Below, piece by piece: positions 1,108 through 64,000 of a stretch of 64,000 nt of DNA. The stretch is taken from positions 1-64,000 of the forward strand of contig CBDCLE010000003.1 of the NCBI GenBank assembly GCA_965218585.1, given 5' to 3'. A model generated the notes under the pieces. That model was given only the letters and a program-made list of their open reading frames with translations. It had not been told where the DNA came from and did not search any database. The position numbers were made by a program, and so were the translations under genes. Each line of letters begins with the position of its first letter. Within the stretch, counting starts at the first letter, position 1. The DNA is from Terriglobia bacterium (GTDB lineage: Bacteria > Acidobacteriota > Terriglobia > 20CM-2-55-15).

Positions 1108-1836
1108 CTAGATGGCCAGTCCGCCGTCGACCTGAATAACCTGTCCTGTGATGTAGGCGGCTTCTTCCGATACGAGGAATTTCGCGATGCGGGCGACTTC
1201 AGAAACCTGGCCGTAACGGCCGAGCGGGATCTGCTCGAGGGCCTTTTCCCGATAGTCCTCAGCCATCGCCAGAGTCATGTCCGTCTCGATGAGTCCGAGC
1301 GCAAGGGCGTTGACAGTGATGCCGGCTTTTGCCAGTTCTTTGGCCAGGGCCTTTGTGAACCCGATCATGCCTGCCTTTGAAGCCGAGTAGTTGGTCTGGC
1401 CCGGTAAACCGACCAGCCCGCTGACGGAAGAGACATTGAGGATGGTCCCGGAACGTTGCTTGAGCATGGCCGTGGCCGCAGGACGTGTGAAGTTGTACAC
1501 GCCTTTCAGGTTCGTATCGATGACTGTGTCCCAGTCGGCTTCACTCATACGGACCAGGAGCTTGTCGCGCGTGATGCCGGCGTTGTTGACCAGAATATCG
1601 ATTCGACCCAACGACGCACGGATCTCCTTAATTACCTCAGCTGCACGTTTACTGTCGGCGGCGTCGGCTTCGAAAGCGAATATCTTTTCTCCGTCCGCGA
1701 TTTCATCCGCCAGGGAACGGTTGTGAGCGTATGTCAGAGCCACGCGCGCGCCGTCGGCGGACAAGGCCTCCACGATGGCTCTTCCGATTCCGCGGGTTCC
1801 ACCGGTAACGACCGCTACTTTATCTGTTAAGGGCAC
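1108..1836 (-). CDS. fabG: 3-oxoacyl-ACP reductase (SDR family)
   Basis: TGGTRGIG, NNAGITRD, NYSASKAG (YxxxK), ITGQVIQVDGG. Confidence 0.88.
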   Translation of the reverse strand: MPLTDKVAVVTGGTRGIGRAIVEALSADGARVALTYAHNRSLADEIADGEKIFAFEADAADSKRAAEVIKEIRASLGRIDILVNNAGITRDKLLVRMSEADWDTVIDTNLKGVYNFTRPAATAMLKQRSGTILNVSSVSGLVGLPGQTNYSASKAGMIGFTKALAKELAKAGITVNALALGLIETDMTLAMAEDYREKALEQIPLGRYGQVSEVARIAKFLVSEEAAYITGQVIQVDGGLAI

Positions 1837-1925
1837 AGGCCTCCTCGACTTTGAGAACCCAGCCGACAGCTGGCTGCCTCGCGGCAGATGCCGCTGGATT
1901 GTACCAAATGGCTAGGCAGGGAGGG

Positions 1926-2894
1926 TCAGGATGCCAGTACGCCGGCTAGGTCGAGGAGTGCCAGATCCAGGGGCTTTTGCTTGCCAGCAACGTCGGTGAG
2001 CGGCGTCGTCTGGACGACGCCGTTTAACGTCCCCACCAGGCAGCCAAATTCATCCCTCTTGATAGCCTCAATCGCTCCCACGCCTAATCGCGTTGCCAGG
2101 AGCCTGTCGAAGGCTGTTGGGACGCCGCCCCTCTGAACGTGTCCGAGGATCGTGGCCCGAATCTGAAATTCAATGTCGGCCAGCTGGCTGAAGTACCGTT
2201 CGAGCACGGTGGCGTTACATAGCGCACCCTCGGCGACGACGGCCAGGGCGTGCTTTTTGCCCTTGTCGTAGGCTGTCTGAAATTCCTTTGCTACGGCTTC
2301 CGGCGTGGTTTCCCGCTCCGGAATGACGACGGCTTCTGCGCCGCCCGTTATTCCGGTGATCAGAGCGAGATACCCGCAGTCACGCCCCATAATCTCGACG
2401 ACGAGACCTCTCTGATGAGACGACGCGGTGACCTTCAGTCGATCGATGGCTTTCAGAGCGATGTTCAGGGCTGTGTCGACTCCAATCGTGATGTCCGAGC
2501 CCACCAGATCGTTGTCGATGGTCGAGGCGATGCCCACGACAGGGAATCCTCTTTCCGACAGCGCAAGCGCCCCTTGCTGGGAACCGTTTCCCCCAATGAC
2601 GACCAGCGCCTCGATTCCGTGAGTCGAAAGTTGATCCAGTGCCCTTGCCCGGCTGGCATCCGTTTCGAACTCGGGGCACCGCGCCGTACCAAGGAACGTA
2701 CCGCCCATTTGAATGATGCCGCTGACGTCCCGGCTTTCCAGGGGCTTAATCTCTCCGTTCAGCAGTCCGTTGAAACCGTGCTCTACGCCTGAGACTTCCA
2801 ATCCAGCTTCCATTCCCGCACGGACGACAGTCCGGATGGCGGCATTCATGCCGGGGGCGTCGCCCCCGCTGGTCAATACTGCGATTCGATTCAT
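1926..2894 (-). CDS. pfkA: ATP-dependent 6-phosphofructokinase
   Basis: LTSGGDAPGMNAA, GGTFLGTARC, TIDND, EIMGRDCG, LGHVQRGG. Confidence 0.95.
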   Translation of the reverse strand: MNRIAVLTSGGDAPGMNAAIRTVVRAGMEAGLEVSGVEHGFNGLLNGEIKPLESRDVSGIIQMGGTFLGTARCPEFETDASRARALDQLSTHGIEALVVIGGNGSQQGALALSERGFPVVGIASTIDNDLVGSDITIGVDTALNIALKAIDRLKVTASSHQRGLVVEIMGRDCGYLALITGITGGAEAVVIPERETTPEAVAKEFQTAYDKGKKHALAVVAEGALCNATVLERYFSQLADIEFQIRATILGHVQRGGVPTAFDRLLATRLGVGAIEAIKRDEFGCLVGTLNGVVQTTPLTDVAGKQKPLDLALLDLAGVLAS

Positions 2895-61617: not shown

Positions 61618-62589
61618 TTAGTCGTTCTCTCTGCTGATCTTCCGCACACCTCCGGTGCCGGAGACATAGATGACATCTTCAGATTCGATCGCCACATCGT
61701 GAACCGCCGTCATACCGGCAGTATCTGCGGAGAGGAGAATTTCCACCTCACCTTCGGAGTTCAGGAAAGCTGCCGGACTCTCTTCTCGATAGCCCACAAC
61801 CCACACGCCTCCGAAGGGTGACGGCGCAACATTGGCCACGCGTCCCACCACGGGGTCCAGGGCCCACTCGGCTTCAAAGTGCCCGTCAGGGTCAAAAACC
61901 TGGACGCGGGAGTTCTCCCGATCGGCTACCCAGACCCGGCCATCAGTGTCGAGGTCCACTCCGTGTGGAATTTCGAACATGCCGGGATCCGTGCCGGCAG
62001 CACCCCACTCTTGGAGGAAGGCCCCGGTCGGAGAAAACTTTGCTATGCGGGAATTTCTGTAGTCATCGGCGACAAAGAAGGAACCGTCAGGCTGCACGGC
62101 AACCTCGGTGGGCGCGTTAAAGTGGGTCTGGTTCCAACCGGGAACGCTGAGCTCGCCCAGAGTCAGCAGCAATTCACCGTCGTGAGAAAACTTGAAGACC
62201 CGGTGACCTATGGCATCGGTGAGCCAGACATTGTCCTCGTGGTCTATCGTGAGCCCGTGCGGCACGAGGAAGGTGTCCGCGCCCCACATGGCTAGCAGGG
62301 CACCACTTTCTCTGTCTAACATGACAACCGGATCGTCCTGGAGCAGGTCCGTGACCTCCCAATCGAACTGGCGTCCGGCCCGACGGAATGCGAAGACGTG
62401 ACCATGTGAATCGACGTCTACAGCGGACACATACCCGGTCACGAATCCCTCCGGAAAGACAGGCCAACCCTCAACCCTGGCGTACGAGGCGGGGGCCTGG
62501 GCCTCCAGATCCTCGACAAACGAAGGCGTCAGAGCAAGGACCGCCAGGCAACCCATAACTCCAATCCAAACGATCATGATTCGACGCAT
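61618..62589 (-). CDS. Secreted NHL-repeat protein, peptidyl-alpha-hydroxyglycine lyase-like
   Basis: FLVPHGLTID..NVWLTD, HFNAPTEVAV, ADDYRNSRI, PHG, ADRENSRVQVF. Confidence 0.84.
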   Translation of the reverse strand: MRRIMIVWIGVMGCLAVLALTPSFVEDLEAQAPASYARVEGWPVFPEGFVTGYVSAVDVDSHGHVFAFRRAGRQFDWEVTDLLQDDPVVMLDRESGALLAMWGADTFLVPHGLTIDHEDNVWLTDAIGHRVFKFSHDGELLLTLGELSVPGWNQTHFNAPTEVAVQPDGSFFVADDYRNSRIAKFSPTGAFLQEWGAAGTDPGMFEIPHGVDLDTDGRVWVADRENSRVQVFDPDGHFEAEWALDPVVGRVANVAPSPFGGVWVVGYREESPAAFLNSEGEVEILLSADTAGMTAVHDVAIESEDVIYVSGTGGVRKISREND

Positions 62590-62850
62590 GTGTACCAACC
62601 TCTCGAAGGACAGGGACCGGTCCTCGTCCGGTTAACAGTTGTGACGTGTAAGAAACTGGGGGAAAGTCTATATAACGAGTGGGTTGGAAGCAACGAAATG
62701 TCAGCTTCGCTGGATGGACTTGTCGTTTCGTCAGATCGATGATGAGAGGCGAGGCGGGTTTTCTTTGACAGGATTTCGGGCCGGCGAGTAACATCAGCCC
62801 AATGGCCGACCTGCATTGAGGTCAGCTACAAACCGGAGGTAATTTTGAAC

Positions 62851-63889
62851 ATGAAATCGTTCATAGCCATCTTGCTGCTGTTGACCGGCCTCACGGCGTG
62901 TTCAGCACCAGGCCCCGAACCCACCGATTCTTCAGAAGACGCCCGGAATGCTGTAGCGCCCGAGTTTCGACCGGCTCCCTTTGGGGCGCAGGCGCCTCCA
63001 CTGACGGATCCAGTCGACATCGAAGCCATCGATCAGTTGAGCAGAGACTGGATTGCGACGTTCGAGGGAGGAAATCCCGAGCCTGTGGAGTTCATGTTTG
63101 CACGTGAAGCGATCTTTCTCACCACAGAGCACGAAGCCCTGTTGGCCGAGGGGGCCGCATCGGCTAAGGTTCTGTTCGAGAATTCACTGCCCGGTTAGCA
63201 TTAACGGACGCGGTGAATCAAGACGAGGGCCAGAATTGGGCTTCGTACAAGGCGCTTTTCGAGCTCGGGCTCACGCCAAAGAGCGGTGGCGAATGATCCA
63301 ATTCGACGGTAACTTTTTTGTCCGGTTTCACCGGGAGCCGGACGGCACCTTCGAAGTGATGCACGGTCCCCTCGAAGGCGAACCCGCGTCCGACTTCACG
63401 TTGAACTACATGAAGGGGAACGGTTCATCGGTCCAACTCTCCAGCTTGCGGGATAAGCCGACAGTTCTTGTTTTCGGCAGTTACACGTGAGGACCCTTCC
63501 GTTCCGGTGTCGGTGACATCGAAGATTGGTACCAAGCTTATAAGAATCAGGCTCACTTTCTCTTCGTCTACATCGAAGAAGCCCACTCGCTCCAGGGTTG
63601 GGTGACCGAGGGCAACGAAGCAGCAGGCATCCAGATCAACGACCACACAAGCTATGAAGAGAGGGAAGCGGTTGCAGAACTCTGCACGACGGCTCTGGAC
63701 CTAACCGTGCCAGCCATAATCGACAAGTTCGACAACGCCGTGGAGATCGCCTATGGGGGGTTCCCGGATCGCATCTACGTTGTCGACTCTGATGGGATCG
63801 TGCGGTACAAGACCAAGCAAGGACCCTTCGGGTGGGACATTCCGGAGGCGACCTCAGCCCTGGACGGCGTCCTCGAAGGCGGTTCTTGA
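62851..63889 (+). CDS. Lipoprotein: NTF2/SnoaL-like domain + iodothyronine-deiodinase-like selenoprotein (two 1-nt frameshifts in the read; Sec TGA at 63488)
   Basis: LTAC lipobox; PTVLVFGSYT-TGA-GPF, VYIEEAH..GW, N.V..AYG..PDRIYVV in one continuous frame across the TGA. Confidence 0.8.
63491..63523 (+). promoter_or_regulatory. Candidate bacterial SECIS hairpin
   Basis: Stem CGGTGTC/GACATCG with GGT loop starting 21 nt after the in-frame TGA. Confidence 0.6.
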
Positions 63890-64000
63890 CCGTATGGTGG
63901 AAGTCAGAAGCGCGGGATGGGCAGTTGTTGTTCTTTAACGGTCCTCAAACCCGTTCGTCATCGGGCGGTCCCTTGTGGGAGGAGGCGTTTCGCACGGCGA

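Follow-up and report, generated by a model that had tools for sequence, protein, structure and literature searches.

A probably recently broken gene for a deiodinase-like selenoprotein with an NTF2-like domain in a soil acidobacterium

Results

One gene spread over three reading frames

We analysed a 64,000-nucleotide stretch of DNA from a Terriglobia bacterium of the Acidobacteriota (the window; contig CBDCLE010000003.1, positions 1 to 64,000, assembly GCA_965218585.1) and concentrated on positions 62851–63889 of its forward strand. Translation of the window DNA places a single gene here, spread across three frames, in what is a soil bacterium. The gene product is of the class of predicted exported, selenocysteine (Sec)-containing relatives of the thyroid-hormone deiodinases, and it includes a small ligand-pocket domain. 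The features of the gene are as follows, all on the forward strand.

62835..62839, +, ribosome-binding site GGAGG, 11 nt before the ATG at 62851 (read from the sequence)
62851..62901, +, predicted lipoprotein signal peptide with lipobox L-T-A-C; codon of Cys17 at 62899–62901 (translation)
62851..63183, +, piece 1, codons 1–111, frame 1: signal peptide, Pro/Ala-rich linker and first half of the NTF2-like domain
63184..63185, +, break 1: codon 112 (TAC, Tyr in relatives, which read ENYTARL) without its middle A (DNA alignment with the orthologue; X3 contig)
63186..63293, +, piece 2, codons 113–148, frame 0: middle strands of the NTF2-like domain
63294..63295, +, break 2: codon 149 (TCG, Ser in relatives, which read GGESIQFDG) without its middle C (DNA alignment with the orthologue; X3 contig)
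63296..63889, +, piece 3, codons 150–346 and stop (63887–63889), frame 2: last strands of the NTF2-like domain and the deiodinase-family thioredoxin-fold domain
63488..63490, +, in-frame TGA, predicted Sec codon, residue 214 of the intact protein, in FGSYT-U-GPF (alignment with Dio3 and Dio2; conservation)
63505..63521, +, hairpin resembling a bacterial Sec insertion sequence (SECIS), with a 7-bp stem CGGTGTC/GACATCG and loop GGT (pairing counts in relatives)

Left unrepaired, frame 1 meets a TAG stop at 63196–63198 and yields 115 residues; the open part of frame 0 spans 63168–63293, and the second break creates an ATG at 63293–63295 that is in frame with the remainder of the gene. The three pieces tile onto intact orthologues with precisely one residue absent at each joint (Tyr and Ser), and the DNA alignment of the window gene (1039 nt) with its same-genus orthologue (1041 nt) contains exactly two 1-nt gaps, at codons 112 and 149. 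The two deletions are 110 nt apart and both fall within the NTF2-like domain. An earlier note on this DNA, made from the letters alone, had joined the three open reading frames into one gene, following FGSYT-TGA-GPFR in frame through VYIEEAH..GW and AYGGFPDRIYVV, and that reading holds. Its places for the missing bases (about 63184 and 63293) are also correct, but the bases are A and C where it had T and A, and the restored residues are Tyr and Ser where it had Phe and Met. Programmed frameshifting was considered and dropped, since the relatives have one plain frame.

The in-frame TGA, its hairpin and the Sec machinery

Past the TGA, another 132 codons of the frame read as deiodinase-family sequence, catalytic motifs flank the TGA on both sides, and in a phmmer alignment the TGA falls on the position at which Sec was changed to Cys in the crystal constructs of Dio3 and Dio2. 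The stem of the hairpin (63505–63511 pairing with 63515–63521) begins 14 nt past the TGA, and its G-first loop (GGT, 63512–63514) begins after 21 nt; the earlier note was right about a hairpin with such a loop, while its distance of 21 nt belongs to the loop and not to the start of the hairpin. Across 10 genes, 70 of 70 cells are paired, with compensatory changes in two of the seven pairs, whereas controls with slid partners are 9–63% paired. In the same register, all ten TGA genes form 7/7 pairs, in contrast to the eight Cys (TGC) homologues, which all form 2–4 of the seven. The pairs were counted on genes of the GPF type only, because a joint fold of three subfamilies gave only a 4-pair consensus; in the U-PPF subfamily we see by eye different hairpins with a GGT loop at a similar distance.

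Three properties of the hairpin count against its significance. Its fold energy does not stand out (z = -0.24, matched by 75 of 200 shuffled sequences), five of the seven pairs never vary, and its arms also encode conserved G-V and D-I, so that the conservation may partly act at the level of the protein. Rfam gave no match at E <= 1 in 62400–64000.

The genome of the window (G000) holds the full set of Sec genes for which the earlier note had asked: profile searches found SelA (1.4e-119), SelB (2.5e-112) and SelD (1.8e-106, at C4:113004-113927, with an in-frame TGA of its own in FAKCAGU), and a tRNA-SeC(tca) lies at C5:77275-77372. In selA, at G000:C2:238285-239360 (-), the last ~45 codons (...EDLSASELEKRLRDAEPPVIVRIEDDRVLIDLRTV...) stand in a different frame from the body of the gene, which corresponds to a 1-nt gap against the whole selA of the same genus (471-aa open frame); the strain may have a true lesion in its Sec pathway, or the assembly may carry an indel at this point (about C2:238380). 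At G000:C3:322364-323569 the selB model also matched an EF-Tu-like sequence whose matched stretch includes one TAG, perhaps a further break or simply the stop codon of that gene.

Could the TGA be an ordinary stop, with the flanking open reading frames being separate genes or the downstream part being non-coding? Gene callers do cut all homologues at the TGA, as in the public 213-aa entries P0005, P0007, P0008 and P0010, which end at the UGA. Against this stand the further 132 codons with motifs on both sides, the retention of TGA across the family and the phylum with TGC in the Planctomycetota, the covarying hairpin downstream and the Sec machinery of the genome, and we find an ordinary stop hardly credible. 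The comparison of homologues, in which the TGA site carries Sec or Cys and both domains form one gene in the relatives, leaves the hidden selenoprotein gene of the earlier note standing, and it establishes the TGA at 63488–63490 as a predicted selenocysteine codon.

The catalytic domain

The residues of 63296–63886 were searched with the TGA read as Sec. They match the Pfam family T4_deiodinase (PF00837) at 1.1e-26 (94.1 bits against a gathering cut-off of 27) over about 63449–63862, as do all six full-length relatives. Among solved structures, phmmer places mouse Dio3 (4tr3, 3.7e-18) and mouse Dio2 (9h48, 1.1e-17) closest, at 28% identity. With the full-length model of the orthologue as the Foldseek query, 9h48 and 4tr3 again lead, followed by ResA-, thioredoxin- and AhpE-type proteins.

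The alignment with Dio2 and Dio3 shares FGSxT-[Sec/Cys], YIEEAH..GW, a second His, H-S-E-R, DN...AYG, (E/D)R(L/I)YV and GP-G. A set of Ser, Thr, Tyr, Glu, His and His is described as the deiodinase proton relay in the available part of PMC11592359, and in the same alignment the set Ser, Thr, Sec, Tyr, Glu, His and His is conserved in the window protein. The catalytic domain of the same-genus orthologue (L019) further matches NCBIfam NF038285, a hypothetical equivalog of 347 positions named 'deiodinase family protein', over profile positions 172–332 (2.2e-54, 185.2 bits, below the cut-off of 250); the N-terminal 170 positions of the profile are unmatched, so the N-terminal domain here differs from that of NF038285.

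Two features of the active site bear on the possible substrate. The same source, as far as available, describes Dio3-Arg275 and Dio2-Lys241 as clamping the carboxylate of the hormone, and the corresponding position here is Gln (TKQGPFGW against GGRGPDGY in the Dio alignment). The protein also lacks a UxxC motif: it has U-G-P-F, with no Cys at +3, and, apart from the lipobox Cys, only the Cys of AELCTT, 65 residues downstream of Sec, is invariant. With Gln at the clamp and UxxC absent, nothing points to a substrate resembling thyroid hormone. A peroxiredoxin assignment was dropped on account of the T-U active site, which deiodinases share; the peroxiredoxin motif used for comparison is PxxxTxxC.

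The lipoprotein signal and the NTF2-like domain

The consensus of a lipobox is [LVI][ASTVI][GAS]C. The LTAC of the window protein was read by eye, and its Cys is kept in the orthologues; Pfam LPAM_1 matches the window piece at E 0.26 only, so the predicted lipoprotein signal rests on the motif together with the conservation of the Cys. Ahead of the ATG of the orthologue, CCGGAGG stands as it does here.

For the domain that follows, two results tell against the assignment: the window's own N-terminal pieces match no NTF2 family in Pfam, and the full-length AlphaFold2 (AF2) model of the orthologue, built from 6 sequences, is only moderate, with a predicted local distance difference test score (pLDDT) of 61.7. 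The full-length orthologues give matches to DUF4440 in four of six (best E 2e-5) and to SnoaL_2 in two of six. Because the full-length model was moderate, the N-domain of the orthologue was refolded alone with 60 sequences, which gave a pLDDT of 92.5. Foldseek searches with this model returned NTF2-like proteins as top matches (for example 3rob, 3ef8, 3b8l, 3hx8 and 3soy); of the 30 matches at E <= 0.001, those listed are NTF2-like except 6jzf and the cystatin-like 3ejv.

We also searched the 123-residue N-domain of the orthologue with phmmer against 1.84 billion cluster representatives. This yielded 59 proteins at E <= 0.001, only 9 of them at E <= 1e-10. The near matches are lipoproteins that end precisely at ...FGS[YF]T, an ending seen in six representatives of 50%-identity clusters, and the distant matches pass the Pfam cut-offs for DUF4440/SnoaL. 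Named records matching the N-domain pattern are titled as metagenome-assembled genomes of Acidobacteria or Terriglobia. Fold comparison and transitive homology support the N-terminal domain as a predicted NTF2-like (DUF4440/SnoaL-like) cone. The order of lipobox, NTF2-like domain and deiodinase-like domain given in the earlier note agrees with Pfam, phmmer, Foldseek and the orthologue alignment.

The two breaks and their age

Contigs of four coded runs were compared with the window over 62600–64000.

Run X1 (may be the window's source): 62600–64000 covered, 0 other letters, 0 gaps
Run X2 (another study): 62600–63533 covered, 0 other letters, 0 gaps
Run X4 (the study of X2, a different sample): 63117–63353 covered, 0 other letters, 0 gaps
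Run X3 (the sample of X1): 63059–63533 covered, 29 other letters, 2 gaps

The X3 contig puts an A behind 63184 and a C behind 63294, which restores the intact frame. It co-occurs in the sample of X1 and differs from the window at 29 of 477 nt (~94% identical), and we therefore take it to come from another (sister) strain. No homopolymer surrounds either deletion (TAC to TC and TCG to TG in the DNA alignment). In the catalytic part, third codon positions hold 23 of the 27 listed differences from X3 (a hand count of the listed differences; three more in the whole stretch stand outside the listing), and the differences between the window gene and the same-genus orthologue are distributed over first, second and third positions as 49/27/100. 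This bias towards third positions indicates that the gene was under selection until recently and that the breaks are young.

Several observations pull in the other direction. The depth of the contigs at both break sites is low (2.1–3.0) and the library types are not on record; X1, one of the runs with zero differences, may be the window's own source; selA of the same genome also has a 1-nt frame break; and in the protein collection the 115-aa stump (P0013) is recorded only from the window's own contig, whereas the sister allele is recorded from several contigs in its intact form, cut at the UGA to 213 aa. It could thus be argued that the gene is intact in the organism, that the two bases were lost in sequencing or assembly and that the full lipoprotein selenoprotein of 346 residues is made, as would also suit a sequence that, apart from the indels, looks selected. 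The contigs of X1, X2 and X4, from three runs and two studies, are identical to the window with no gap at either site, the sole contig with the extra bases belongs to another strain and the deletions stand outside homopolymers; an intact gene therefore seems unlikely to us. The same two deletions in contigs of two studies make it most likely that the copy in this genome is truly broken, a recent pseudogene and not an assembly error, contrary to the earlier note, which implied that the indels are read errors to be polished. Both deletions are very probably genuine, and we go no further than this because contig depths are low and library types are not on record. This copy would have lost its function.

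A second way to save some function would be for the split gene to work in part, with the new ATG at 63293–63295 starting a leaderless, cytoplasmic deiodinase-like selenoprotein of 198 residues, akin to short paralogues. The ATG is in frame and gene callers begin a 65-aa open reading frame there (P0071); the TGA, hairpin and catalytic motifs downstream are intact; and the genome has two intact short Sec paralogues without an obvious signal peptide. What makes this scenario very improbable is the want of a good ribosome-binding site (only GGTGG, 3 nt ahead of the ATG), the orphan NTF2 strands that the product would bear at its N terminus, and the presence of two independent frameshifts, which suggest decay and not remodelling. 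Among the RNA runs listed, none covers this stretch.

Relatives and distribution

A search of close kin found matches in 20 of 41 genomes. Of the 32 places listed, 25 contain exactly one TGA, and the other seven are weak matches, one Cys form and one relic. Within the window's own family, 17 of 35 genomes match, and every one of the 25 listed places has exactly one TGA (query of the family-wide search P0002, best identity 56%). The fused NTF2–deiodinase form occurs in 10 of these 35 genomes: eight carry it whole (nine places), G440 has a part of it and G000 the broken copy. Six-frame reading gives single open frames of 334–363 codons with one TGA for L019, L020, L021, L022 and L023, among which L019, from the same genus (1495–2532, minus strand), is intact at 346 codons and 84% identical in the catalytic part.

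A sample of the phylum gave matches in 46 of 401 Acidobacteriota genomes (45 of 400 besides G000), with one TGA in 43 of the 46 places outside G000; these counts include three genomes flagged as unpublished (G189, G086 and G063). Outside G000, every match in this sample began at residue 143 of the query or later, and so, with that query, the fusion was found only in the window's own acidobacterial family. The open frames of the phylum sample span 159–627 aa, pointing to many different accessory parts.

Cys takes the place of Sec in the metagenome proteins P0003, P0004, P0006, P0009 and P0011, and eight Planctomycetota homologue loci have TGC (Cys) at the site. The search for related loci used a back-translated pattern that cannot match TGA, and hence it found mainly Cys-coded Planctomycetota genes and is no census of Sec forms. 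One cluster at 90% identity contains entries with G at the Sec place, namely P0002 (FGSYTGGGF), P0075 and P0076, with a full length of 351 aa, together with P0079 and P0082, which stop right after FGSYT. Since near-identical entries either read G or stop there, the Gly in the P0002 cluster would be a TGA translated under another genetic code.

Other arrangements were seen among the relatives. In five genes from related genera (L024–L028, in G002, G023, G007, G017 and G013), a signal peptide is followed by a deiodinase-like domain with FASYT-U-GPF and by ~200 residues of EF-hand-like DxDxDG repeats, which match NCBIfam XopAW (1.7e-16) and lanmodulin (LanM, 6.2e-8); the same hairpin is present in the same register. 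L030, L031, L034, L035 and L033 comprise U-PPF types with a membrane anchor, a multi-pass membrane form bearing FGSLT-U-PVFC, and a Cys form fused to tetratricopeptide repeats (FGSYTCPKL).

Discussion

A proposed working of the intact protein

We consider it likely that the locus is a recently broken copy of a family-specific acidobacterial selenoprotein gene of the bacterial deiodinase-like family, and we extend this judgement to the following working of the intact form. The intact protein would consist, in order, of a lipoprotein signal peptide, a disordered linker of ~35 residues, an NTF2-like (DUF4440-type) cone and a deiodinase-type thioredoxin fold with FGSYT-Sec-GPF. Its UGA would be recoded by SelB and tRNA-Sec, aided by the 7-bp hairpin with the G-first loop 21 nt downstream, and the product would be exported and lipid-anchored on the periplasmic side. 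There a small hydrophobic substrate would sit in the NTF2 pocket or close to it, and the selenolate may attack one of its electrophilic atoms, be it a halogen, the oxygen of a peroxide or a sulfur; the Cys of AELCTT could resolve the Se-X intermediate as a selenenyl-sulfide, and a periplasmic thiol-reductant chain would then re-reduce the enzyme. In this genome, the deletions would end translation at 115 residues and sever the catalytic domain from the signal peptide.

The substrate may be a halogenated aromatic or else a peroxide or disulfide; the conserved deiodinase relay favours deiodinase-like chemistry, while the absent carboxylate clamp argues against hormone-like substrates. The earlier note's extracytoplasmic Sec-dependent reductase or dehalogenase with a ligand pocket of its own likewise stands as a proposal, with no substrate or partner found. 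One can go further and suppose that the intact NTF2–deiodinase lipoproteins of this acidobacterial family are periplasmic, Sec-dependent reductive dehalogenases of natural halogenated phenolics in soil organic matter, in which the NTF2 cone holds the aromatic and the Sec domain removes the halogen by deiodinase-type halogen-bond chemistry. We regard this as a long shot. If true, bacteria would have a way of dehalogenating that needs no cobalamin, and these proteins would represent an ancestor-like, free-living form of the animal deiodinases.

Relation to known systems

The bacterial deiodinase-like selenoprotein family (PF00837) was described in 2005 by Zhang, Fomenko and Gladyshev from the Sargasso Sea (PMC1088965), and reviews of 2022 and 2026 list it with the motif UxxC (PMC9312934, PMC13188914), according to the accessible portions of these papers. 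What those portions describe agrees with the present gene in the thioredoxin-fold PF00837 domain, in Sec encoded by an in-frame UGA, in a downstream bacterial SECIS with G in the apical loop and in the existence of Cys homologues; it differs in that the reviews give UxxC where U-G-P-F stands here, in the lipoprotein signal and NTF2-like domain, and in the broken frame of our copy. Neither an NTF2 nor a lipoprotein architecture appears in the accessible treatment of the deiodinase-like family in PMC13188914.

Mouse Dio3 (4tr3) and Dio2 (9h48) are the closest solved structures by sequence and fold, sharing FGSxT-Sec, YIEEAH..GW, the second His and the Asp/Glu-Arg of (E/D)R(L/I)YV. They differ at the clamp (Dio3-Arg275 or Dio2-Lys241, Gln here) and in Cys168 of FGSCTU, which is Tyr here. 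The animal enzymes are anchored by a transmembrane helix, whereas the present protein has a lipobox signal and an NTF2-like domain; their eukaryotic SECIS lies in the 3' untranslated region, whereas the bacterial SECIS-like hairpin lies within the coding region; and thyroid hormone is not expected in a soil bacterium.

The EF-hand-fused selenoproteins L024–L028 resemble the window protein in being predicted to be exported and in their F[GA]SYT-U-GPF and hairpin register, but their accessory part is C-terminal and made of DxDxDG calcium-binding repeats in place of an N-terminal NTF2-like domain. The DUF4440/SnoaL-like members of the NTF2-like superfamily (3rob, 3b8l, 3hx8) share the fold of the N-domain and are linked to it in sequence through DUF4440 proteins; identity to the solved structures is 13–20%, and the domain of the present gene differs in its fusion to a selenoenzyme domain and its predicted lipid anchor. 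Among the papers listed by literature searches combining deiodinase with DUF4440, SnoaL or NTF2-like, none gave an account of such a fusion, and supplementary files may list such genes; the NTF2–lipoprotein–deiodinase fusion appears to be undescribed, while the family itself is already known.

The deiodinase-like family has been catalogued since 2005 without an assigned function. An exported, lipid-anchored fusion to a small-molecule-binding domain would narrow the guesses to an enzyme acting on a small hydrophobic ligand outside the cytoplasm, and the intact same-genus orthologue offers a concrete protein to express. The genes are also an annotation trap, as gene finders cut every member at the UGA.

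Genomic setting and paralogues

Genomic context gives no clue to an operon or pathway, which also weighs against the proposed working. The gene stands alone, with a convergent gene downstream. When the open reading frames within ~9 kb on each side in G000 were compared with five stretches of 17–18 kb from four relatives (two of them from G003), no shared neighbours were found bar one weak pair. The divergent upstream gene at 61618–62598 (-) encodes a signal-peptide NHL-repeat/SMP-30-like beta-propeller (Pfam NHL 7e-20, SGL 2.3e-10) and is not kept beside the orthologues. Site-pattern searches at the locus found no terminator-like site and one promoter-like site, where shuffles gave 0.6 expected.

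62765..62794, +, match to a sigma-70-like promoter, TTGACA-18-TAACAT, within the 252 nt that separate the gene from its divergent upstream neighbour; weak, by consensus only

The two short Sec paralogues mentioned above lie elsewhere in the genome (G000:C2:181478-181966 (-) and G000:C7:42080-42571 (-)); both are intact, carry [FM]GSYT-U-PPFR and lack an obvious signal peptide, so the genome still has unbroken Sec genes of the deiodinase-like family. The same-genus genome G003 has two whole copies of the NTF2-type deiodinase-like gene. In G000, a 3' relic of a second NTF2-type copy lies at G000:C17:118337-118480 (-); it consists of the last ~57 codons, 65% identical, with no in-frame upstream part, and we count it as a sign of wider erosion in this genome.

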